A stretch of DNA of 64,000 bases. Source: Waddliaceae bacterium (GTDB taxonomy: Bacteria; Chlamydiota; Chlamydiia; Chlamydiales; Waddliaceae). A program made the translations under genes and the position numbers. The DNA lies in the NCBI GenBank assembly GCA_963724325.1, contig CAVRUH010000004.1, forward strand, positions 1 to 64,000, written 5' to 3'. The notes under the pieces were generated by a model. The model had not been told where the DNA came from, made no database searches, and was given only the letters and a program-made list of their open reading frames with translations. Shown here piece after piece: positions 3,379 through 41,509 of the stretch; the first letter of the stretch is position 1, and every line of letters begins with the position of its first letter.

Positions 3379-4362
3379 TTACTGAAAAAGCTGCTGAACA
3401 TCATTAGCTAATAGAATCTCGTCCCACACAGGAATAAAGCGATCAAGCATTCTAATTAAGCTTTGCTCGCGAGACAAGTTGCTCTCGTCCCTTGCATGTA
3501 AGATGTAAGTCGCGCGTCGCAATATAAAATCAACTGCAGCAGGAATGATAGGATTGCTAACAGAATTCTGCCTAGCATAAGCATCTGCGGTGCGAATAGC
3601 CAAATCATGGTGCACGTTAAAGAGTTTTCCAAATTCAATCGAATAATCACCAATCACTGCATCGGAAAAATCAAAAACGCCAGTTACTTTCTGCGTGTTG
3701 ACATCGAAAGCAAAATTGCCTCCATGGAGGTCGTTGTGAAGCAGGACTTGATACCCATTATTATTAGGATGCCGATTAGAATACTCCAGCGCCTCGGTAA
3801 TTATTCTTTCAATCTCGGGAGATGGCAGTGTGCCTATCAATGAGTCTCTTATCCATTCATGTGGAACACGATATTCGCGATATCCCCAATCCAATGCCTC
3901 TTCGATATCTACAGCATTATGCAATTGTGTTAGAAATAGCGAAAGCGTTTCCGCCACTTCCTGTCGAACATCTTCGGTTAGCGAAAGATATAGTTCTTCT
4001 TCCAGAGCCGCTCCAGGTATTTTTCGATACCCGACGAAGGATGTTCGAGCACCAACGAACTCGTAATAAGGAATAGGTATTGAGATATTTTCGTGAAGAC
4101 AATTGAGTAGTTTTTGTTCGCGCTCTAACGTAGATATGAATGCTTCGGAACGTGGAAAACGAAAAATCCAATCTCCATTAACTTCTGCCACTAGATTATC
4201 CCAGCCAGATGAAATAAGTGTAATGGAATCGACAGTAAGCGAGGGTATTTCTTCTACCAAAACAGTTCTTACAGTTGATTCATCATGGCCTTTAAGTAGT
4301 ATTGGGTCTGCTACTACAGGGGTTGCAAAAATGCATAGGGCTAATAGAATATATCGGCACAT
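3379..4362 (-). CDS. aminoglycoside-phosphotransferase (APH)-family kinase with N-terminal signal peptide
   Basis: SGWDN, WIFRFPR, LHNDLHGGN (Brenner-type), GVFDFSD; N-terminus MCRYILLALCIFATPVVA-DP. Confidence 0.85.
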   Translation of the reverse strand: MCRYILLALCIFATPVVADPILLKGHDESTVRTVLVEEIPSLTVDSITLISSGWDNLVAEVNGDWIFRFPRSEAFISTLEREQKLLNCLHENISIPIPYYEFVGARTSFVGYRKIPGAALEEELYLSLTEDVRQEVAETLSLFLTQLHNAVDIEEALDWGYREYRVPHEWIRDSLIGTLPSPEIERIITEALEYSNRHPNNNGYQVLLHNDLHGGNFAFDVNTQKVTGVFDFSDAVIGDYSIEFGKLFNVHHDLAIRTADAYARQNSVSNPIIPAAVDFILRRATYILHARDESNLSREQSLIRMLDRFIPVWDEILLANDVQQLFQ

Positions 4363-6969: not shown

Positions 6970-7089
6970 AAGATTCCGCCCGTTTGAGGCTTCAAATGGG
7001 CAGAATCTGATAAAATTTACAAGATTCCGCCCATTTGATACGTCAAACGGGCAGAATCTAGCTAAATTTACAAGATTCTGCCCGTTTGA
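6970..7089. repeat. 51-bp tandem repeat (about 2.4 units), each unit a 17-bp-arm palindrome
   Basis: Units at 6970-7020, 7021-7071 and a partial unit at 7072-7089; AGATTCYGCCCRTTTGA-N4-TCAAAYGGGCAGAATCT. Confidence 0.9.
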
Positions 7090-7097
7090 CGTATAAT

Positions 7098-8363
7098 TCA
7101 TATCAGCGTAAGCAAGTGTTTTTTTTGCCAACCTTTAAGATAATCAAGCACAATTTGCTCGGGTAAATTGACATCCTTGGCTAATTGATCCACAAACTTA
7201 TAATTGGGAAGTAATGGCATTTCATCCATCAAAGCCCTCAAGTTTTTGAGTGTAGCATCTGTAAGCGGAGCAAATGCTGGTTGTCCTGGATCTATATAGA
7301 GATCATAATCCGGGTGCGCTAGAGAATAGAGCCCTTCAAAATTCCTTTTAATTAGAATTTTTTTCTCGAACTTTTTAATTACTTCATAAAGATGCGATAC
7401 GCTGGATGCCAGGGAATCTTTTGAGATGATATTCAAGTTATCGCGATCTGAATGGTATTCCTGATAAGGGTACCGAGTCAGCGTGCACATTGGAATATGA
7501 TGACTTTCCCAAACCACCTCGTCATTACAAATGATACTTCTAAAAGGCCCTGAAGAAAGCGACAGGTTATTTTCTAATAGTTCCTCAATGCAACTTTTCT
7601 CTTCACGACTTTTTTGTAGAGCCAAAGGTGTCGCAGACCCAAGCATCTCAAGAAAACAGGATTCAATAATATTGCTATCAGCCGTTTTGTCCAAGTAGAA
7701 AACTGATCCTATGATCTCCTGAACAATCACTAAACGGTACGTAAATTTTGTTTTCATGGCGGCAATCTTATGAAAAAGCTCAACACCAACAGCCACTCCT
7801 GATAAATCATCATTTGCCATTCCTGGGTGGTCTAAATGGGCAACAAAAGCAAGGCTTTCCTTGTTGTCACCAACTTTTTCATACTCGGCCACCTTTAAAA
7901 TACCTTGAGACTCTTTGGTTATTATCTCAACCTGATATTCTCCTGGTTCAAGTGAATCATAAAATGCTTTGGATACACAAAATCCCCAGTTTCGCTCCCA
8001 GGGACGGTAGTGTTGCCTGAAGTGATAAGGTATGCTCAAATTGTCTCGATGATCGTAATGGAGGTGTTTTTGAAGTTCTTCACAAGAAACAGTTCCAGTA
8101 AAACTTAAAGAAAGGCCAATAATTTTAAGCGGATGGTCCACCTCGAAAATAGTTTTCCCATCTTTTTTTATCACACCTTTAACTAAATCCCACTTAGGCG
8201 GGATTACCCACCCTTTATAGGGAGAGGTTGTTTGATATTCGTGAATCTTAAATGGGAGAATAGTTTGAAGAAATTTAAGACTTTCATCATAATCTGACGA
8301 GCAGAAAATCCGATTCATACGCCATAAGTTCTCTATCACTTGATATGCTATCGTGACCTGCAT
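7098..8363 (-). CDS. DUF4910/DUF2172 aminopeptidase-like protein with C-terminal HTH
   Basis: GWVIPPKW, WGFCVS, AHLDHPGMANDDLSGV, YQEYHSDRDN. Confidence 0.8.
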   Translation of the reverse strand: MQVTIAYQVIENLWRMNRIFCSSDYDESLKFLQTILPFKIHEYQTTSPYKGWVIPPKWDLVKGVIKKDGKTIFEVDHPLKIIGLSLSFTGTVSCEELQKHLHYDHRDNLSIPYHFRQHYRPWERNWGFCVSKAFYDSLEPGEYQVEIITKESQGILKVAEYEKVGDNKESLAFVAHLDHPGMANDDLSGVAVGVELFHKIAAMKTKFTYRLVIVQEIIGSVFYLDKTADSNIIESCFLEMLGSATPLALQKSREEKSCIEELLENNLSLSSGPFRSIICNDEVVWESHHIPMCTLTRYPYQEYHSDRDNLNIISKDSLASSVSHLYEVIKKFEKKILIKRNFEGLYSLAHPDYDLYIDPGQPAFAPLTDATLKNLRALMDEMPLLPNYKFVDQLAKDVNLPEQIVLDYLKGWQKKHLLTLI

Positions 8364-8365
8364 GC

Positions 8366-9181
8366 CTAACTCCTAATGATGTCTGTTGGTATTTTTCCAG
8401 GGATAAAAAGGGGTGGAGCTTGTAGAAAAAAGTAAGGATTTTGATCTAATCCTGCGATACCCACTCGGTAAGCATTTTCGGCAGTGACAGCATAGCAAGT
8501 AAGCGATTTAAAGGTGCTTTTCAGAAGTACTCCCTCTTCCTCCATTTTTACTTGGAATAGAGATAAATTATAGTTGATAGAATAATCTAAATAGCGAACG
8601 GCACTTATGGGATGCCCAGGAAGTTGTTTTCCCCCTTTGAAAACAGGATAGGGAAATATTTTAAAGTAAAGGTGAGGCACGCCATATTGCTGTTCGATAT
8701 AGTGAACGAAGGTCATCGACTGGATGGGGGCTCCAAGGAAGAGAATTTTTCCACCCATCATGCGCAATTTATGCCATGGAGATTGAATCCCATAACCTGA
8801 AAGTGAAAGACTTCCTGTGAGTTCATGAGCATTTTTTCCTATGGCAGCAATGCTCTGAAGGGGGTTGCAGCTACGAATTGCTTGAGGGTGAGATGTTACC
8901 CACTGGCTAAAAGAACCAAGCGAATCTGATACAGGCGATTTATCTGCATCAAAGGGGATTTGCTGCCTTGCATATTCGTAGAAGTAAGCTGGGACTGCAA
9001 TTGTTCCTTCATGACCTATCACAGATAATATGCAATCATAATAAAACTTTAGAATTTCCTCTCGCGTTCCAGCATGGTTTGGCAAACCAAATCCGCGCAA
9101 GTCGCTGTGAACTAAAACTGTGTCGCCTTTTTTAAGTCCGATATTTATAAGAAGCTCGATTAGCTCGTTTTCTGTGATCAT
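8366..9181 (-). CDS. AAC(3)-family N-acyltransferase
   Basis: GLKKGDTVLVHSDL, GTIAVPAY, SPW...GGKILFLG, TFVHYIEQ. Confidence 0.88.
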   Translation of the reverse strand: MITENELIELLINIGLKKGDTVLVHSDLRGFGLPNHAGTREEILKFYYDCILSVIGHEGTIAVPAYFYEYARQQIPFDADKSPVSDSLGSFSQWVTSHPQAIRSCNPLQSIAAIGKNAHELTGSLSLSGYGIQSPWHKLRMMGGKILFLGAPIQSMTFVHYIEQQYGVPHLYFKIFPYPVFKGGKQLPGHPISAVRYLDYSINYNLSLFQVKMEEEGVLLKSTFKSLTCYAVTAENAYRVGIAGLDQNPYFFLQAPPLFIPGKIPTDIIRS

Positions 9182-10368
9182 TCACTCCCCTCCTCTATGA
9201 CATTCACCTGAGTTAATGCATTGAAGAGATCCTGCCCATCCCAAACCGGCTCAAAGTTTAATGCTTGTCCTCGAGGAACCATTCTCGTTATCCCTTTGCC
9301 ATTTAAAACTTTTGCTAAATTTATAAGTTCTAATTTTGAAAAGCCTTCATGAACAAGGGTTTGATCTTTGTGAGTTGTAAAGGAAGCTATTTGATTTAAA
9401 TCAGTTATGGGAACATGATACAACATTCCGTATCCACAGTGTAAACGACAACTCGGCTCAGCATTTTTTAGATAGACTACACTTAATTCATTGCTAAATT
9501 GAGCCACTTTTTCAACTGGTAAATTAAGGGATTGGGAAAAAAGGAATGTTTTTTTTAAGAGGGAACCTCCTAGAGATATCTTAAAGAGGCGCTTCTCAAT
9601 TGTTTCCTGCAGCAATCTATAAAATTGACTACTTGCCAATTCTATTTCTTCTTTATCTCCCACCCAAAAAATCAAACGGGGCGAAGAGCACCCAGATTGA
9701 TCGAACCAGTAAATGTCGTTGTAAAAGTTAATGGCGACCTGTTCCATGTCAGATCTTAAATAATTTTTGGCATTTATGGCTCCATAAGAAAAACGGTCGG
9801 GAAAGGCGATGTCTATACCATCGGGTTGCAATGGAATTTTTCTTATCTTCAAAATCGTTTCATCCCCGCCCCAAATCACCCGGGCATCTGCCTTTGATGA
9901 GATCAAGGCTGTGATATCCTCTTCATGACCATACTCTATAAAAAGATTCATAGCCTTAATCGAAGCAAACTGTTTTTCATTTACTAGATCGAAGATCACT
10001 TTCAGGAGTATATCAGATCTAGCATTCTTCGTTCCTGGAATTCGAATGATATTTTCATTTCCAAGCAAAAGGGAAGTGATCCACGAATAGACTAGCATCA
10101 CATCGATATTAGCTGGAGGGATATGAAAAATTACCCCTCTAGGTACACGAAAACCCTCTTTACTTCGAAAAAAACTCTCTAATTGATTGAGGTGGCCTTT
10201 GCGCAACCAAAATGCAAGTGCAATAAAGTCAGGATTTTGCTTAGGATCGATTTCTGTAAACAAATTTTTAGACAACGACTGACAAAATAAAAGCAGTTCT
10301 GGATGAAAAGGAATATAACTTTCGGTTTTATTTTCAAAAAATGACGTTATTTTTTGCATCAAAGTCAT
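9178..10368 (-). CDS. LuxC-like acyl-CoA/acyl-protein reductase
   Basis: PRGVIFHIPPAN, VIWGGDETI, WFDQSGCSSP (catalytic Cys), WDG; start moved to the ATGA overlap with the luxE-like gene. Confidence 0.88.
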   Translation of the reverse strand: MTLMQKITSFFENKTESYIPFHPELLLFCQSLSKNLFTEIDPKQNPDFIALAFWLRKGHLNQLESFFRSKEGFRVPRGVIFHIPPANIDVMLVYSWITSLLLGNENIIRIPGTKNARSDILLKVIFDLVNEKQFASIKAMNLFIEYGHEEDITALISSKADARVIWGGDETILKIRKIPLQPDGIDIAFPDRFSYGAINAKNYLRSDMEQVAINFYNDIYWFDQSGCSSPRLIFWVGDKEEIELASSQFYRLLQETIEKRLFKISLGGSLLKKTFLFSQSLNLPVEKVAQFSNELSVVYLKNAEPSCRLHCGYGMLYHVPITDLNQIASFTTHKDQTLVHEGFSKLELINLAKVLNGKGITRMVPRGQALNFEPVWDGQDLFNALTQVNVIEEGSE

Positions 10369-11414
10369 GATTTCATACCCATGATTGCATATGTGTCGCT
10401 GCATCCTCTAATTTCTGCTTGCGGTGCTCGCCCAAGAACGTGGAAGAACTTCCCTTTGCGACCGCAGGAACAGTTATCAATTCCCATTAAAATCCCCAAA
10501 TCCTCAGTCAACAGGCAATGCCCAGGATAGCTGGCAGGCAGGGTGCTTAAGACCTGTATGACACCTTCTTTTTTCGATTCTTTCCAATCTGCTGGATCGC
10601 GCACGATGATATCGCCAAAGGTAGGACAATGGAAAAAACCTTCCTCACATTCAACAAAAACATTGCCCACCTGTTCTGCCATCCCATAAAAATTATGGCA
10701 ACGGGAAATCCCTGTTAATCTTTTCAATTTTTCCTTAAAAACTGAGTTGTCAATAGCCTCTTCTTGCATCTTCTTCCAGCCTCCTGTGTGCAGCAGAATG
10801 CCTTGATGCAGGTCTAAGTCATTAATCTCATTTAAAAAATGCTTCCAAATAATATAAGTCATTCCAAAAATCAATATGGGAGTGTTTTGATGATTTTGCA
10901 ACCACTCACCCAAGCCTGGTTTATTCAAGGTCATATCGTCATTGAGGGCATAAAAAATATCTCGTCCAAAGGTCATCATGCCAACGATTGCAGCGCCTCT
11001 AGCTCCGTAATTAAAGCGGTCTTTAATAACATGAGGATTGTCTATTACAATCATAGGAAGTCTTGCTTTCCCAAGAAAGGAAGCCATAATTTCTGCTAGG
11101 GCCTTAGTTTGACGCTGTGCTGTCTCTGCATCTAGAAAGATCTTGCTGGTCTGCCCAGATGTGGTCCCGCTTGATGTAAGGGTTTTAAAGATTTGCTCCC
11201 TTTTAATGCTAAGAAGATCATGCGTCTTGAATAAATTGACAGGAAGGTAAGGAATATCAGCTAGTGATTTGTATTCCTTGATGCCTCCATAAAATAAGTC
11301 AAGAATTCTGGCATATTCTGGACAGTTGATGTAATGATGATGAGACAGTTTGTTAAGCTCGTTGAGCAAAAAAAACTCTTTTTGATCCTGAGTCATTTGA
11401 TAGGGATAATTCAT
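10365..11414 (-). CDS. LuxE-like acyl-protein synthetase
   Basis: IPYLPVNLFK, TSSGTT, TGGWKK, FYGMAEQ, SYPGHCLLTEDLG, GRAPQAEIRGCSD. Confidence 0.9.
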   Translation of the reverse strand: MNYPYQMTQDQKEFFLLNELNKLSHHHYINCPEYARILDLFYGGIKEYKSLADIPYLPVNLFKTHDLLSIKREQIFKTLTSSGTTSGQTSKIFLDAETAQRQTKALAEIMASFLGKARLPMIVIDNPHVIKDRFNYGARGAAIVGMMTFGRDIFYALNDDMTLNKPGLGEWLQNHQNTPILIFGMTYIIWKHFLNEINDLDLHQGILLHTGGWKKMQEEAIDNSVFKEKLKRLTGISRCHNFYGMAEQVGNVFVECEEGFFHCPTFGDIIVRDPADWKESKKEGVIQVLSTLPASYPGHCLLTEDLGILMGIDNCSCGRKGKFFHVLGRAPQAEIRGCSDTYAIMGMKS

Positions 11415-12751
11415 CCTAACCTCATGTAATCAATTTTATCAGAGGTAGTTCTCGGTAACTTCTCAATACTTAAGCAGCGGAAAGTACTTGGATGCAAGCC
11501 GTAAATTTGTGAAAGATGCTCAATACACTCTTCAGGCTTAGCTTTCGAGCCATTTTCAACATATATTGTGATCTGTTCATCTGTTGCTGTCACAGCAATA
11601 TTTCCATAAGGGGCTAGTTCTTTTTCAATGTCATCAAGATTAATACGAAGTCCATAAACTTTTGATATGCGTTTCATACGACCGGTGACAAAGAAAATTT
11701 GATCCTGATCAAAGTACCCTAAATCTCCAGTGCGCAATGTGCCGTTAAGTTCATCACCTTTCGCAAGGTCGCTTGCTTGTTGGGCATATCCTAACATTAC
11801 ATTACTTCCCCGATAGACAATTTCTCCTGTATGTTTTGATTCTTTTACTTGATTCTCGCCATCATAGATCTTTAAGCTCCCTCCTGGAATGGGAATTCCA
11901 ATGGATCCTAACTTCTCAGGCAATAAATTGGGAGGTAAATAAGCAATTCTTGCAGTTGCTTCCGTTTGACCATACATAACGAAAAAGCGATTAACTTTTT
12001 CGTAAAATTTCACTACTAATGCAGGATCCAAATGGCCCCCAGCTTGTGTCAGCGTCTTTAAAGAAGGTAAATTCATTGTTAAAAAACCAACTCGCTCCAG
12101 TGCTTTATAAGTATAGGGGACCCCTGCAAGAGATGTGCAACTAAACTTTTTAAATATCTCCCAAAATGCATTTTGGGTCACGCTGCTTTGCGTAAGCACT
12201 ATAGATGCCCCAGCAAACAAGTGGCTATGCAATACTGAAAGACCATACGAGTAATGAAATGGAAGGCTTGCTATGGCCCTTTCAGATGAATCTATGTTGA
12301 GATATGCAATAATGGCCTGACTATTTGAGAGGATATTTTCTTTTGAAAGACGGATTAGTTTTGGACTGCCTGTAGTTCCTGAAGTCGATAGCATCAGTTG
12401 CAATTTATTATGTAATTTAGTTGACCCTTCTCCTCTTAACTTATAAATCCCAGGTGAAAGGGCATCATACCCTTCCCAGTCTAATTCATCTGAAAAAATA
12501 TAATCGGGCAGATAAACTCTCACAAGATTTTTTTTTAACGATTCATGCATGAATCCATCGAGAAGTGAAACGACGTTGCCGCAATGAACAGCGCTCAGGT
12601 ATGCGATGGTATCTTCCATTCGATTTTTGTTAAAAATAAAAATATGAGATCTTTTTTTTATTGAAAATTTTTCTGCGGCATTATTCAAGTCCCGGTAAGT
12701 GACAATACGGCCGCTTTCCCCATCTATTAAAGCGGGATTATCGTTAAACAA
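11411..12751 (-). CDS. AMP-binding (adenylate-forming) acyl ligase
   Basis: STSGTTGSPK, LPFHYSYG, MYGQTEAT, TGDLG, GR, KIDY. Confidence 0.9.
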   Translation of the reverse strand: MFNDNPALIDGESGRIVTYRDLNNAAEKFSIKKRSHIFIFNKNRMEDTIAYLSAVHCGNVVSLLDGFMHESLKKNLVRVYLPDYIFSDELDWEGYDALSPGIYKLRGEGSTKLHNKLQLMLSTSGTTGSPKLIRLSKENILSNSQAIIAYLNIDSSERAIASLPFHYSYGLSVLHSHLFAGASIVLTQSSVTQNAFWEIFKKFSCTSLAGVPYTYKALERVGFLTMNLPSLKTLTQAGGHLDPALVVKFYEKVNRFFVMYGQTEATARIAYLPPNLLPEKLGSIGIPIPGGSLKIYDGENQVKESKHTGEIVYRGSNVMLGYAQQASDLAKGDELNGTLRTGDLGYFDQDQIFFVTGRMKRISKVYGLRINLDDIEKELAPYGNIAVTATDEQITIYVENGSKAKPEECIEHLSQIYGLHPSTFRCLSIEKLPRTTSDKIDYMRLG

Positions 12752-13487
12752 TCATACCTCCATCTACTCCCAGAATTTGGCCCGTGACGTATGTTGACAT
12801 GGGGCCCGCAAAAAACAAAATAGCTGATGCGACTTCGCTCGGATCTCCTATTCTATTCATTTGGATTGAATCAACAATGTCTTTAGATAGAGATGCAGTA
12901 AGGTCGGTGTTGATAAAGCCAGGAGCGACGCAATTAACCCTGATTCCATAAGGGGCAAGCTCCTTGGCCGCTGACTTAGTCATGCCAATGACTGCAGCTT
13001 TTGTGGCAGAATAGACCACTTGACCAGCAGAACCCTGCACTCCGACAATTGAGGATATATTGATAATCGAACCGCTTTTCTTACGCATCATTAAACGGGC
13101 TGCAGCTTGCATGCTGAGAATGCCTGAAAGAACATTCAAGTTAAAAGAGCTAGAAATAACTTCATCTGAAATCATCCCTAAAAGAGCAGGTCTCATAATG
13201 CCTGCGTTATTGACAACGATGTCAACTTTGCCATACTTTTGTGAAATTTCTTTATAGCAATTGACAACCTGTTTTGAGTCAGCAAAATCAGCAAAAAAAC
13301 TGGAAGCTTCAGTACCATAATTTTCTTTTAGAAATTCTACCCTTTCTTTGAGAAGATTTGGATCTGAATGACCATTAAGGATGACTATAGCACCTTCAGA
13401 GGCAAAGAGTTGCGCTGTGCTCCAGCCTATTCCTTTGGTTGAGCCAGTTATAAATGCTATTTTGTCTTTAAGAGAGTGTGGGGACAT
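12744..13487 (-). CDS. SDR oxidoreductase, 3-oxoacyl-ACP reductase-like
   Basis: TGSTKGIG, NNAG, YSATK, VAPGFINT. Confidence 0.9.
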   Translation of the reverse strand: MSPHSLKDKIAFITGSTKGIGWSTAQLFASEGAIVILNGHSDPNLLKERVEFLKENYGTEASSFFADFADSKQVVNCYKEISQKYGKVDIVVNNAGIMRPALLGMISDEVISSSFNLNVLSGILSMQAAARLMMRKKSGSIINISSIVGVQGSAGQVVYSATKAAVIGMTKSAAKELAPYGIRVNCVAPGFINTDLTASLSKDIVDSIQMNRIGDPSEVASAILFFAGPMSTYVTGQILGVDGGMIV

Positions 13488-13719
13488 ATTTTCTCACAAT
13501 TTCAACTGCCTTGTGATAAGAGCTCATGTCTAAAACATCTATAGTTTCGATCATGATGCCAAATTCATCTTCAATAGCAGCGATGAGATGTAAATGAGCT
13601 ATTGAATCCCACTCACTTGATTTAGCAAATTCCAATTTTGTGTAATTAATTCCGGATGAAAGACTTAATCCCATCTCGAATGCTTTTTGAAGTTTTGATT
13701 CTAAATTAGATTCTTCCAC
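13468..13719 (-). CDS. acyl carrier protein
   Basis: 83 aa, acidic, WDSIAH phosphopantetheine-Ser motif, IEDEFGI. Confidence 0.88.
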   Translation of the reverse strand: MEESNLESKLQKAFEMGLSLSSGINYTKLEFAKSSEWDSIAHLHLIAAIEDEFGIMIETIDVLDMSSYHKAVEIVRKYVPTLS

Positions 13720-38470: not shown

Positions 38471-38598
38471 CTATGCTCCAATTGAATCTTTATTAGCCTT
38501 ATAATTTATTTTTTATTTATGCGCAACCTCTTAAAAATATTTACTCGAATGTAAATTTATGTGTTGAAATATTTCCACACTTGTTTTTAGAATCAGGC

Positions 38599-39486
38599 AT
38601 GTTGAAAAAAATTGTCAATCGAACCCTCATGCCACTGCTAGTACTGCTCTCGACTGTTTTTATTCCAGTCGCTGCAGAACAACCAAAACCAGAAGGACTG
38701 CCCTTGTATTATTGGCAGCAGCCTCAATTTGTAAATTTTGGAGATTATCTTTCGTTAAAATTGGTCGAACGTATAGTTAATTGCCCAGTACATGTACATA
38801 GAAGAAATCCAAATATTAAAGTAAAAAAACTTCTGGCAATAGGATCACTAATGTCTTTTGCTTTAGATGAAGATGTCATTTGGGGAACCGGAGTTAATGG
38901 AAAACTCATGAATAAAACTGACTACAAATTCACTAATCTTGATATAAGGGCTATCAGAGGCCCTTTATCACGAAAATTTCTATTGGATCAGTTTGGGATA
39001 AATTGCCCAGAAATTTATGGAGACCCTGCATTGCTGGTCCCTTGCTTATTTCCAGAATTTGTTAAAAGTGAGACTCCAAAATATGACTATATCGTCATTA
39101 TTCACTACTCTGAATTGAATTTATTTCCGAAAACAGAGGATGGAAGAATTATCCACGCAACGGATCCTTGGGATGAAATAATCTCGAAAATAGTCGACAG
39201 TAAGTTTGTCATTTCGAGTTCCTTGCATGGCGTCATTGTTGCTGAGGCATTCGGCATTCCAGCACGCCTATTACGCGTCAGCGAAACGGAGCCTTTATTT
39301 AAGTTTCAGGACTATTATGCTGGGTCAGGAAGGGATCGTTTCGAGTATGCTGCATCTATCGAAGAAGCGCTCCAAATGGGAGGTGAACTTCCCATAAAAT
39401 GCGACTTACAGGCACTCTACAATGCATTTCCGTTTGATTATTGGCCAAATGCAACTTACACAAAACCAAATTGGGATATAGAATGA
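38599..39486 (+). CDS. polysaccharide pyruvyl-transferase family protein (ExoV-like) with signal peptide
   Basis: NFGD, AIGS, WGTG, AIRGPLS, GDPALL, SSSLHGVIVAEAFGIP, FKFQDYY. Confidence 0.85.
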   Translation: MLKKIVNRTLMPLLVLLSTVFIPVAAEQPKPEGLPLYYWQQPQFVNFGDYLSLKLVERIVNCPVHVHRRNPNIKVKKLLAIGSLMSFALDEDVIWGTGVNGKLMNKTDYKFTNLDIRAIRGPLSRKFLLDQFGINCPEIYGDPALLVPCLFPEFVKSETPKYDYIVIIHYSELNLFPKTEDGRIIHATDPWDEIISKIVDSKFVISSSLHGVIVAEAFGIPARLLRVSETEPLFKFQDYYAGSGRDRFEYAASIEEALQMGGELPIKCDLQALYNAFPFDYWPNATYTKPNWDIE

Positions 39487-40502
39487 AGTTCTTTGTATTA
39501 TGTTTACTTTACCCTTGCTTGTTGACAGCAGGGCTTATTGATCTTGAAGATATGACCCAAGACTTTGTCCTGGAAACCAAGAAAATAGACATTCCTGAAT
39601 ACCCTACAGCCTTTAACCCTTCCATTATGCGTTGGAATGATTCTTTCCTGCTGATCTTCCGTATTCATGATCCTGAAACAAATGATACAAGTCAAAGTGC
39701 CTATGTCTGGCTTGACCAGGATTTTAATCTCTGCAGCCCTGCGCGGCCCCTTGAAATCCTATTTAGTGTACCGCAACAATACTCAAAGATACAGGATCCA
39801 CGCATTCTTTCGGTGAATAACGAACATTTCATAGTTTTTAATAATCAGGTAGGCATGTCCGCAACAAAAGAAATCCGCAGAATGTTTGCAGCAAAACTCA
39901 GATTTGATTCCGATAGACTCTATACTTTAGAACCTGAATTTCTAAAACACTTCCATGTGCCTGTTGAAAGCGTTCAGGAGAAAAACTGGGCTCCTTTTGA
40001 GCATCATGGAGAGTTAATTTTATCTCATACAATCAATCCTCACATAACTTTAAAGCCTGTTTTAGGAACAGAATGCTGTCTGACAATGGGTTTGACTGAA
40101 GCCGAAATTGATTGGGATTGGGGGGCGCTGCGAGGTGGAACCCCTGCACTTCTTGTAGACGAAGAATATTTAGCCTTTTTTCACTCGTCAAAATTAATGG
40201 CAACGACACATTCGAATGGTAAAGGAATCACTCATTATTTTATGGGAGCCTATACGTTTAAAAATACACCTCCATTTCAATTAACGGCAATTAGTCCAGA
40301 ACCTATAGTCGGAAAGAATTTTTATAATGGACCCGCATATAATACTTGGAAGCCTCTTCGAGTTGTATTCCCCTGCGGCTTTGTATTTGACGAAAATTAC
40401 ATATGGGTTTCTTACGGGCGTCAAGACCATGAAATTTGGATCGTCAAACTCGACAAAAAAGGACTTCTTGAAAGCCTTAATCCTGTGATATCCAAACCAT
40501 GA
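39483..40502 (+). CDS. secreted five-bladed beta-propeller glycoside-active protein (GH130/beta-mannosyltransferase-like), paralog 1
   Basis: AFNPSI, QDPR, EKNWAPF, LRGGTP, VVFPCG, SYGRQD; start moved to the ATGA overlap. Confidence 0.65.
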   Translation: MKFFVLCLLYPCLLTAGLIDLEDMTQDFVLETKKIDIPEYPTAFNPSIMRWNDSFLLIFRIHDPETNDTSQSAYVWLDQDFNLCSPARPLEILFSVPQQYSKIQDPRILSVNNEHFIVFNNQVGMSATKEIRRMFAAKLRFDSDRLYTLEPEFLKHFHVPVESVQEKNWAPFEHHGELILSHTINPHITLKPVLGTECCLTMGLTEAEIDWDWGALRGGTPALLVDEEYLAFFHSSKLMATTHSNGKGITHYFMGAYTFKNTPPFQLTAISPEPIVGKNFYNGPAYNTWKPLRVVFPCGFVFDENYIWVSYGRQDHEIWIVKLDKKGLLESLNPVISKP

Positions 40503-41509
40503 AAAAATTTATTTTGACTCTATTATTACACACGTCACTATATGGATCGATAGACCTCGATGAACTGGCTCAAGACTTCGTATTAGAGACCAAGAAAATA
40601 GAAATACCCGGATACCCGCATGCATTCAACCCTTCAATCATACCCTTTCAGGATGGCTTTTTGATGACTTTTAGGGTCATACTAAATCCATCCTATGTCT
40701 TCATCTCACATATCGGCATTCTCCGCCTAGACCATGCATTTAATCCAATAGGCACCCCGCAACTTTTTGATTTCCGCGAATCCTCCCCCGTTCCCTCACG
40801 TGCCGAAGATGCCCGGTTAATCTACATTGGTAGTAGACTATGGATGGTCTATACCGACAATCCTGATGTAGTTCTTACCAAAGGGGGATTCAGAGTTTTT
40901 CTTACTGAGATCACCTACGACGGATTATTTTTCAATCTACAGCATATTGAAAAACTCTCAAATTTTGAGGGAGAAACACCCACGAAACGAGAAAAGAACT
41001 GGGTGCCCTTTGATTACAATGGTGAGATGCTTCTCTCCTATAGCCTAAGCCCCCATATTGTTTTCAAACCTCATCTGGGAACAGATAGTTGCGAAACTGT
41101 TGTAATGACACAAAAAGATATTCCATGGAATTGGGGCGATTTGCGTGGCGGCACCACAGGTCTTAAAATCAATGATACAGAGTATTTATCTTTTTTCCAT
41201 TCCTCTATTCCAATGGAGTCGGTTCATTCAAATGGCGTAACAATGCCCCATTATTTTATGGCAGCCTACACATTTTCGTCCGAATATCCCTTTGAAATTA
41301 CTAGCATAAGTCCTGAACCCATTTTCGGAACGAATTTTTATCACGGAGCCGAATACCAGCGTTACTGGGGATCGATTAGGTGCGTCTTTCCTTGCGGACA
41401 TATTGTAGATGGCGATTACATTTGGATTTCCTACGGACGCCAAGATCACGAAGTCTGGATCGTAAAACTCGACAAGCAAGGACTGCTCAACAGTCTTAAC
41501 AGGCTCTAA
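40499..41509 (+). CDS. secreted five-bladed beta-propeller glycoside-active protein, paralog 2
   Basis: AFNPSI, EDAR, EKNWVPF, LRGGT, VFPCG, SYGRQD. Confidence 0.65.
   Translation: MKKFILTLLLHTSLYGSIDLDELAQDFVLETKKIEIPGYPHAFNPSIIPFQDGFLMTFRVILNPSYVFISHIGILRLDHAFNPIGTPQLFDFRESSPVPSRAEDARLIYIGSRLWMVYTDNPDVVLTKGGFRVFLTEITYDGLFFNLQHIEKLSNFEGETPTKREKNWVPFDYNGEMLLSYSLSPHIVFKPHLGTDSCETVVMTQKDIPWNWGDLRGGTTGLKINDTEYLSFFHSSIPMESVHSNGVTMPHYFMAAYTFSSEYPFEITSISPEPIFGTNFYHGAEYQRYWGSIRCVFPCGHIVDGDYIWISYGRQDHEVWIVKLDKQGLLNSLNRL

Follow-up and report, generated by a model that had tools for sequence, protein, structure and literature searches.

The Group II flagellin glycosylation islands of Aeromonas have been surveyed, reportedly by Forn-Cuni et al. 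In 98 islands the genes of an acyl carrier protein (ACP), a 3-oxoacyl-ACP reductase, an AMP-dependent synthetase, luxE and luxC are located between pse genes (PMC7874193), and 71-80 enterobacterial strains carry the same donor gene types (PMC4875605). In these two papers the block is interpreted only as fatty-acid synthesis. In Vibrio cholerae wbeN, a LuxE-LuxC gene, together with wbeM, which encodes an iron-containing alcohol dehydrogenase (Fe-ADH), and wbeL is required for the tetronate-acylated O1 antigen (PMC9915646, PMC4772473, PMC3441752). A second set of described genes belongs to the DUF4910 family. Cj1295 is required for pseudaminic acid (Pse) with a di-O-methylglyceroyl group at C5 and was proposed to cleave the C5 acetamido group, Cj1296/7 is listed as an N-acetyltransferase (PMC3068675), and cj1295 correlates with pse genes (PMC13130089). 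CA_C2195 binds one Zn on His189, Asp195 and His324, and its gene has NeuB, amino-sugar N-acetyltransferase and ACP gene neighbours (PMC4000134). Here we describe an operon in which these two known modules are fused; it was found in a stretch of 64,000 nucleotides (the window) from a Waddliaceae bacterium of the Chlamydiota (GCA_963724325.1, contig CAVRUH010000004.1).

The operon at 7098-13719 consists of seven co-oriented minus-strand genes, encoding the ACP, a short-chain dehydrogenase/reductase (SDR), an AMP-forming ligase, a LuxE-like and a LuxC-like protein, an AAC(3)-fold enzyme and a DUF4910 protein (Table 1). Consecutive genes overlap by 20, 8, 4, 4 and 4 nt, and the last two are separated by 2 nt; the longest LuxC open reading frame (ORF) begins at 10404, the ATG at 10368, which overlaps the LuxE stop, being the likelier start. 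The first-pass annotation of this DNA had described seven touching or overlapping genes with intact key motifs, and both descriptions held. All seven ORFs were recovered on the minus strand with the limits it gave, and the motifs were located in the ACP (WDS, residue 37), the SDR (YSATK, a YxxxK motif, 159), LuxE (RGCS, 336), LuxC (DQSGCSSP, 235) and the AAC(3)-fold protein (LVHS, 23, and TFVH, 157). Its suggestion that an acyl group on the ACP is moved onto an amine was likewise supported, and what it said of Cj1295 proved right.

We consider it reasonably probable that the cassette de-N-acetylates a pseudaminic-type sugar, probably at N5, and re-acylates it from a hydroxyacyl-ACP, possibly dihydroxybutyryl-ACP; every reaction, the N5 position, the identity of the acyl group and the final acceptor are what we infer. 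LuxE would adenylate one carboxyl of a small dicarboxylic acid of the malate or succinate type, which would pass via Cys338 to LuxC and there be reduced to an aldehyde, and the SDR would turn this aldehyde into a primary alcohol. The AMP ligase would put the other carboxyl onto the ACP, although the reduction could instead occur on the ACP-bound acid. DUF4910 would strip the N-acetyl group from a nucleotide-linked sugar, most likely from the GlcNAc-derived future N5 of a nonulosonate, and the AAC(3)-fold enzyme would transfer the hydroxyacyl group from the ACP to the freed amine. The CMP-sugar might then be attached to a surface or secreted protein, perhaps through Maf-like proteins.

In the phylum the AAC(3)-DUF4910 pair is the constant part of the cassette. 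A search of 401 genomes of the phylum turned up DUF4910 in 22 and AAC(3) in 18, with 16 having both, and a strong LuxC match in 5; LuxE was seen in three of 61 relatives and not in any of the seven from the same family. In G117, a chlamydial genome of another family, all seven genes recur in identical order with 54-68% identity, and the gene order is thus more than chance. G249 has a LuxE-LuxC fusion ahead of AAC(3)-DUF4910 at a contig end, G328 has ligase-LuxE-LuxC-AAC(3) with DUF4910 far off, and G030 carries a rearranged set (AAC(3), ACP, ligase, Fe-ADH, LuxE, LuxC, DUF4910). Since the G030 cassette has the Fe-ADH in the place of the SDR, the SDR is equated here with an alcohol dehydrogenase. 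A Lux-free arrangement, ACP-ligase-SDR-AAC(3)-DUF4910, occurs in four genomes (G038, G154, G225 and G256). In G159 and family f44 the DUF4910 is of the classic type and the AAC(3) is distant. Across G030, G038 and G256 the AAC(3) and DUF4910 proteins are 46-64% identical to those of the window, while the ligase is 25-27% identical, the ACP match is absent or short, and the ligase, SDR and ACP together gave either 25-31% or no full match. Since the identity of the pair stays high where that of the donor drops, the donor is seen to be swapped and the pair kept; at least three unrelated donor modules are coupled to one conserved AAC(3)-DUF4910 pair. The Lux-free cassette is located directly downstream of type III secretion genes (FHIPEP, a CopN-like protein, a CesT chaperone) at three loci (L061, L062 and L065, in G225, G038 and G154). 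This adjacency was dropped as evidence, as the three genomes belong to a single genus.

The AAC(3)-fold protein matches Antibiotic_NAT (PF02522) with a Pfam E-value of 3.2e-33. In the alignment His25 and His160 correspond to the His residues that were mutated to Ala in 6MMZ and 6MN0, and they are conserved in 56/56 and 54/56 sequences. In the DUF4910 protein Pfam recognised DUF4910 (2.4e-40), an inserted DUF2172 (1.2e-19) and Peptidase_M28 (7e-11), and the motifs AHLDHPGMANDD, QE, FLEMLG, NDE and YHS were found. The AlphaFold2 model (pLDDT 95.6) has 3K9T as its best Foldseek match (E 8.5e-34, TM 0.74), and the metal ligands His189, Asp195 and His324 of 3K9T are retained as His179, Asp185 and His304. 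HTH_47 (PF16221) gave no match at E<=0.001; in the model the C-terminal part forms a compact helical domain, and 430 columns were aligned to 3K9T. His176, Asp185, Glu216, Glu239 and His304 are conserved in 129-135 of the 135 subfamily sequences, and Asp185, Glu216, Glu239 and His304 coincide with the matching motifs of 2EK8; the HxD assignment is tentative. His176, Asp178 and Glu239 are mostly Tyr, Cys and Thr in the classic members (135 versus 12 sequences). By this comparison the window protein looks as if it restores a second metal site of the M28 type that is absent in the solved member.

A formyltransferase, in the place of AAC(3), follows 5 of 7 Bacillota DUF4910 genes, as would be expected for an enzyme that frees an amine. 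Viral contigs show a physical linkage with nonulosonate genes: among the HxD-type loci, some of which are near-duplicates, 12 of 15 have a NeuB-like neighbour, and three end right after the gene. Viral contig L191 (4485-12940) carries a GNAT, a formyltransferase, a partial NeuB, a methyltransferase, a DUF4910 of the same subfamily (48%), a PseB-like gene and Maf, and this near-complete run suggests phage-encoded nonulosonate decoration. DUF4910 genes with the AHLDHP motif adjoin NeuB-like genes on viral contigs L191, L192-L201, L206, L210, L215 and L217.

The donor proteins were assigned with Pfam E-values of 8.7e-60 (adh_short_C2), 7.1e-42 (AMP-binding), 5.4e-46 (LuxE) and 8e-25 (LuxC). The domain searches that the first-pass annotation had proposed thus confirmed LuxE, LuxC, Antibiotic_NAT and DUF4910/DUF2172, whereas the ACP, for which a Pfam match was not found at E<=0.001, was confirmed only by a profile of 17 relatives with an invariant W-D-S. 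With this profile 30 distinct PDB sequences were matched (best E 1.3e-6); every one of them is named acyl carrier protein, and their Ser lines up with that of the profile. A phosphopantetheinyl transferase (PF01648) is encoded elsewhere in the genome. The SDR scores under every FabG equivalog cut-off. The sole PDB match of the AMP ligase at E<=1e-25 is an oxalate-CoA ligase, a weak hint that the substrate may be a small dicarboxylate. The RGCS of LuxE and the DQSGCSS of LuxC align with their counterparts in 7XC6, the structure of LuxC/LuxE from P. phosphoreum, and the catalytic Cys is retained in the chlamydial Lux copies checked. In a LuxE tree of 29 rows the chlamydial copies are unresolved with long branches, and therefore no claim is made on the donor or the direction of transfer.

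The family names LuxE, LuxC and Antibiotic_NAT could be read as a bioluminescence remnant next to an aminoglycoside resistance gene, and these names are all that speaks for such a reading. LuxE scored 50.7 bits against the lux LuxE cut-off of 550, LuxC 42 bits against 750, and the AAC(3)-fold protein 105.3 bits against the NCBIfam AAC_3 cut-off of 270. The latter is at most 27.8% identical to the 25 listed plasmid matches, clinical AAC(3) enzymes included, and the GC content of 39.4% is like that of the genome. Bacterial luciferase (PF00296) had 0 matches in the genome, in a search whose control was positive in 9 of 14 and in an assembly that is 84.6% complete. The remnant-and-resistance reading is therefore already largely refuted, and we regard its probability as very slight; the first-pass annotation had also seen neither a bioluminescence locus nor a typical aminoglycoside resistance gene here, and luxAB, which would have counted against it, was not found elsewhere in the genome.

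A scan of genome contigs for close LuxE relatives gave 23 non-chlamydial loci with 49-54% LuxE identity. The ligase and LuxC are present at all 23, the ACP at 22, the SDR at 21 and a distant DUF4910 at 7. AAC(3) was found at none of the 23, so the expectation that AAC(3) accompanies LuxE-LuxC elsewhere failed outside the phylum but held within it, in five further genomes. Each of the 17 Bacillota loci carries protein clusters whose representatives, one scanned per cluster, score above the cut-offs for PseH, PseG and PseI, and several also contain flagellin, fliD or fliS genes. A hexapeptide acyltransferase is present in 5 of the 6 non-Bacillota loci, the sixth contig being only 4.3 kb long. 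Thus a PseH-type or hexapeptide acyltransferase accompanies the block at 22 of 23 loci, and because of these acyltransferases the block is taken to serve whichever fold of amino-sugar N-acyltransferase is at hand: it acts as a portable source of acyl groups for amino-sugar N-acyltransferases, which are of three unrelated folds. An Enterobacter locus (L023), which adjoins a sigma-factor gene, has a LuxE 50% identical to that of the window, and a split transketolase was seen at several donor-block loci (L010, L013, L020, L023). The metagenome scan for DUF4910 gave one locus, L102, with DUF4910, ligase, LuxE, LuxC, a FabZ-like gene, radical SAM and SDR, on a contig that starts inside the DUF4910 gene.

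These contexts also bear on whether the operon belongs to a small-molecule pathway, making a reduced acyl amide or a fatty aldehyde or alcohol unrelated to glycans. In its favour, the operon has no sugar gene next to it in the window, and the AAC(3) fold includes FrbF (3SMA), which acts in phosphonate antibiotic synthesis. However, 22 of the 23 closest-LuxE genome loci lie in glycan contexts, as do two of the three plasmid loci opened (the third was uninformative), and no transporter, aminotransferase or amine-supply gene is present within the operon. We therefore think a small-molecule product improbable.

In the Pse pathway the N7 amine is free after PseC, and N5 arrives acetylated from GlcNAc. 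Because of this, acylation at N7 needs a transferase only, and acylation at N5 needs a deacetylase first. Donor blocks accompanied by PseH or a hexapeptide transferase but not by DUF4910, and DUF4910 accompanied by AAC(3) or a formyltransferase, fit this logic. Alternatively, the AAC(3)-fold enzyme might acylate the PseC amine, the future N7, in place of PseH, and DUF4910 might have another role, for example as a transacylase itself or in keeping N5 as a free amine. The PseH-type GNAT next to the donor block at the 17 Bacillota loci points to N7, the GNAT domain of the cytidylyltransferase fusion in this genome reaches just 26.9 bits against the PseH cut-off of 93.1, and DUF4910 occurs in five f37 genomes in which AAC(3) was not found. 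Transacylation was raised as a DUF4910 activity by Das et al. (PMC4000134). Against these points, most of the loci read have AAC(3) immediately beside DUF4910, the sole product tied to a DUF4910 gene has its unusual acyl group at C5, and a GNAT able to acetylate N7 is present in the genome. The N7 variant thus appears unlikely to us, and N5 is retained as the probable position.

If the proposed de-N-acetylation and re-acylation holds, dihydroxybutyryl is the best single candidate for the acyl group, a tentative choice that we put at somewhat under an even chance. We presume that wbeK is the ACP and malate the tetronate precursor in V. cholerae. Aeromonas strains with the block have Pse derivatives of 376 Da (oxonium ion 377.16) and 422 Da (423.15-423.16) and an unassigned unit of 102 Da (bioRxiv 10.1101/2024.05.20.594992). 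We computed 377.155 for the exchange of one acetyl for dihydroxybutyryl, and 423.161 if the other acetyl is also exchanged for glyceroyl. The two sugars and the 102-Da unit thus fit dihydroxybutyryl-Pse, Pse with dihydroxybutyryl and glyceroyl, and a dihydroxybutyryl residue. A C4 dihydroxy-acyl product is favoured because these masses fit and because tetronate is a dihydroxybutyrate. A named dihydroxybutyryl-Pse with its genes was not found among the papers turned up by searching.

The first-pass annotation had called the pathway self-contained. This did not hold, since the likely acceptor genes lie on other contigs: PseI at C7:443003-444058 (485 bits, cut-off 340), PseC at C3:12570-13718 (432 bits, cut-off 423.5), a cytidylyltransferase-GNAT fusion at C1:759765-761093 and three Maf-like genes, two on C9 (7328-11966) and one at C11:81947-83767. 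Each is located in an unrelated neighbourhood; flagellin was not found in the genome. PseB is present in all seven family relatives, in one of them in pieces, and the genes that flank it in six relatives have no match in this assembly, as expected if the region is missing from the assembly. A strong NeuB match (E below 1e-40, our own cut) was obtained in 21 of 22 DUF4910 genomes as against 105 of 400 overall, one of the 401 genomes being unscored. PseB is above cut-off in 21 of 22 selected cassette or pair genomes, and partial in the remaining one, versus 46 of 201 genomes of the phylum. In a set of 24 genomes selected for the presence of DUF4910 or AAC(3), 21 have PseB above cut-off, G231 has a partial match and two have none (G395, with AAC(3) only, and G288, with a classic DUF4910 in a different sugar cluster). 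A pseudaminic-type pathway is thereby exposed in about a quarter of the sampled Chlamydiota. The acceptor may differ between lineages, because the NeuB proteins of G117, G154 and G048 do not pass the PseI cut-off and do not clearly pass the NeuB cut-off (for G117, 359 bits with the NeuB and 302 with the PseI model), unlike that of the window genome. Sugar remodelling before transfer has a precedent by analogy in Ca. Kuenenia, where deacetylation as well as formylation takes place at CMP-nonulosonate level (bioRxiv 10.64898/2026.04.20.719630, which presents SugarBase).

Three observations stand beside these genes. HAD hydrolases, ATP-grasp ligases and GNATs occur beside or fused to NeuB in chlamydial genomes. 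A place of the own NeuB (C7) in an acyl cluster was rejected, its neighbours being menaquinone genes. The idea that NeuB replaces KdsA was dropped too, as a frameshifted kdsA match exists; kdsA and carB are split over several frames (C1:1035879-1036647; C3:8230-10910), which suggests assembly indel errors rather than real pseudogenes.

The same chemistry could serve another acceptor, with the pair re-acylating a non-nonulosonate amino sugar of, for example, lipopolysaccharide or an envelope glycan. In G043 a stand-alone DUF4910 of the same subfamily ends an lpxB-containing run, and in G328 it is two genes from lpxK and a SIS-domain gene; moreover, the donor block serves non-Pse amino sugars at 5 of 23 loci (with DegT and/or a hexapeptide transferase), as it does perosamine in V. 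cholerae. However, lpx neighbours were seen at only 2 of 15 loci read of this DUF4910 subfamily, the pair is confined to genomes with strong NeuB (16/16) and was not found in the sampled families without PseB, and L191 places the DUF4910 subfamily inside a NeuB-PseB-Maf run. We therefore judge a different acceptor to be unlikely, and a pseudaminic-type sugar remains the preferred one.

Several points weigh against the proposed de-N-acetylation and re-acylation of a pseudaminic-type sugar. Where M28 peptidases have the general-base Glu, 112 of the 135 DUF4910 subfamily sequences have Gln and 23 have Pro, and hydrolase activity is therefore not assured. AAC(3) is a neighbour at 0 of the 15 HxD-type viral loci, versus 7 of 12 classic-type loci, the five f37 genomes have DUF4910 alone, and G048 has six of the genes without the SDR. 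Neither PseB nor PseG was found in the own assembly (84.6% complete), and of 29 chlamydial genomes a single one has PseG above cut-off. Nearly all genomes of the cassette families have PseB (f32 20/21, f37 6/6, f44 3/3, f1 4/4), which is absent from other families, and since the counts follow family lines, those linking the cassette with PseB and NeuB are not independent. The cassette adjoins pse genes in none of the chlamydial loci read, so its link to Pse is one of co-occurrence. Maf-like genes are present in 32 of 37 genomes, including families without PseB, and thus failed as a Pse marker. The Aeromonas masses, from another organism, fix a formula and not a structure. Enzyme assays for either module, or a product of the cassette, were not found in the literature. 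The Maf-like (MptE-like) proteins themselves are about 450-1030 aa long, with one to five copies, often in tandem, in the majority of the chlamydial families sampled, and none in three f36 genomes.

A wider picture, which goes further than the evidence above and which we regard as rather doubtful, is that flagellin-free environmental chlamydiae use a scattered pathway lacking PseG to decorate surface or secreted proteins with a pseudaminic-type sugar, with serotype-like donor swaps before a constant AAC(3)-DUF4910 pair. In the present genome N5-dihydroxybutyryl would be installed by a DUF4910 amidase with two metals and an AAC(3)-fold transferase that depends on the ACP, and neither of these activities would have been described before.

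Table 1. Coordinates of the operon genes and of the adjoining repeats in the window.
Positions	Strand	Feature
13468..13719	-	Dedicated acyl carrier protein, 83 aa; Ser39 in W-D-S is the predicted phosphopantetheine site
12744..13487	-	FabG-like SDR, 247 aa; TGSTKGIG, NNAG, YSATK; likely reduces the aldehyde to the alcohol
11411..12751	-	AMP-forming acid ligase, 446 aa; likely loads the acid onto the ACP
10365..11414	-	LuxE-like acyl-protein synthetase, 349 aa; Cys338 in RGCS
9178..10368	-	LuxC-like acyl reductase, 396 aa from ATG 10368; Cys in DQSGCSSP
8366..9181	-	AAC(3)/Antibiotic_NAT-fold N-acyltransferase, 271 aa; His25 and His160 kept; distinct subfamily
7098..8363	-	DUF4910/DUF2172 M28-fold metallo-amidase-like protein, 421 aa; predicted de-N-acetylase
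6970..7094		Three palindromic repeats with 51-bp spacing, directly 3' of the DUF4910 gene
7059-7022	-	Terminator-like hairpin, 17 pairs, within the three repeats

The repeats lie between the operon and an AAA-ATPase gene, and a second copy was not found elsewhere in the genome. A convincing promoter of the operon was not found, the scan having given 27 sites as against 17.9 +/- 3.8 in shuffled sequences. The neighbouring genes (AAA ATPase, threonine dehydratase-like, YhcG nuclease) are unrelated. The Pfam scan showed no ketosynthase or glycosyltransferase among the seven genes and eight flanking ORFs, and neither an adjoining sugar-synthesis cluster nor a pse or flagellar gene was seen among the window ORFs scanned. 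Close named homologues of the operon proteins are from Parachlamydia, Waddliaceae and Chlamydiales, in support of the assignment to Chlamydiota. Elsewhere in the window an APH-family kinase (3379-4362) scores far under the resistance-gene cut-offs, and a polysaccharide pyruvyl transferase is followed by two GH130-like genes (38581-41509).

The first-pass annotation had known of no characterised product for this gene combination. This stands for the seven-gene set: the literature searches, in which subscription papers were poorly covered, found no description of it or of a chlamydial Pse pathway. No paper joining chlamydiae and pseudaminic acid was found among the first 40 of 177 matches, and PMC8208679 does not mention the subject. 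The supplementary tables of PMC4000134 (neighbourhoods) and PMC7874193 (genes) may list similar cassettes. For the Lux part it does not stand, as a LuxE/LuxC gene is tied to the V. cholerae O1 tetronate; since the block is known from Aeromonas and enterobacteria and the tetronate product is characterised, this part is less novel than had been implied. What is added here is the fusion of the two modules, the constant AAC(3)-DUF4910 pair with three swapped donors, the scattered pse genes and the M28-like HxD/D/E/E/H set. The genes and their families, the intact catalytic residues, the conservation, the module swapping and the scattering of the pse genes were seen directly.

The tetronate pathway of V. 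cholerae O1 was reportedly proposed by Morona et al. in 1995. In the literature found, neither this LuxE/LuxC hydroxy-acyl proposal nor the C5-deacetylation proposal for DUF4910/Cj1295 from 2010 was accompanied by biochemistry. Since the 6.6-kb operon holds every enzyme for both, the two old proposals are testable in one in vitro reconstitution. If they are true, DUF4910 would gain a function and the AAC(3) fold a non-antibiotic, ACP-dependent role. Such genes should not be annotated as bioluminescence or resistance genes. A variable surface sugar could alter the recognition of the bacteria by amoebal hosts or phages.

Compared with the lux system (LuxCDE, 7XC6), the operon has homologous LuxE and LuxC with aligned catalytic Cys segments, but its scores are far under the NCBIfam cut-offs, its LuxC is about 80 residues shorter than the lux LuxC of 477 aa, LuxA/B were not found in the genome and a LuxD-like gene is absent from the operon. 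With Cj1295 and CA_C2195 (3K9T, with CA_C2197-2199) it shares the DUF4910/DUF2172 fold, the metal triad and the N-acyltransferase and ACP neighbours; however, 3K9T and the window protein are only 22% identical, the latter is on a branch separate from the classic members, and the product tied to Cj1295 is dimethylglyceroyl, whereas the donor in the window is a LuxE/LuxC reduction line. The five-gene donor block is already known, in the same order, from the Aeromonas islands, and enterobacteria have the same five genes. There, however, it sits inside a pse/flagellin island and was interpreted as making a 'liposugar', whereas in the window no sugar gene accompanies the block, AAC(3) and DUF4910 come after it, and flagellin was not found in the genome. 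The V. cholerae wbeL-M-N (rfbL-N) genes resemble the operon in having luciferase-free LuxE/LuxC, an adenylating enzyme and an alcohol dehydrogenase that lead to an N-linked hydroxy-acyl group on an amino sugar. The window differs in having an SDR and not an Fe-ADH, unfused LuxE and LuxC, an AAC(3)-fold transferase and DUF4910; V. cholerae would need no deacetylase, because the amine of perosamine presumably arises free. Both V. cholerae-like features occur in other chlamydiae, the Fe-ADH layout in G030 and the LuxE-LuxC fusion in G249.

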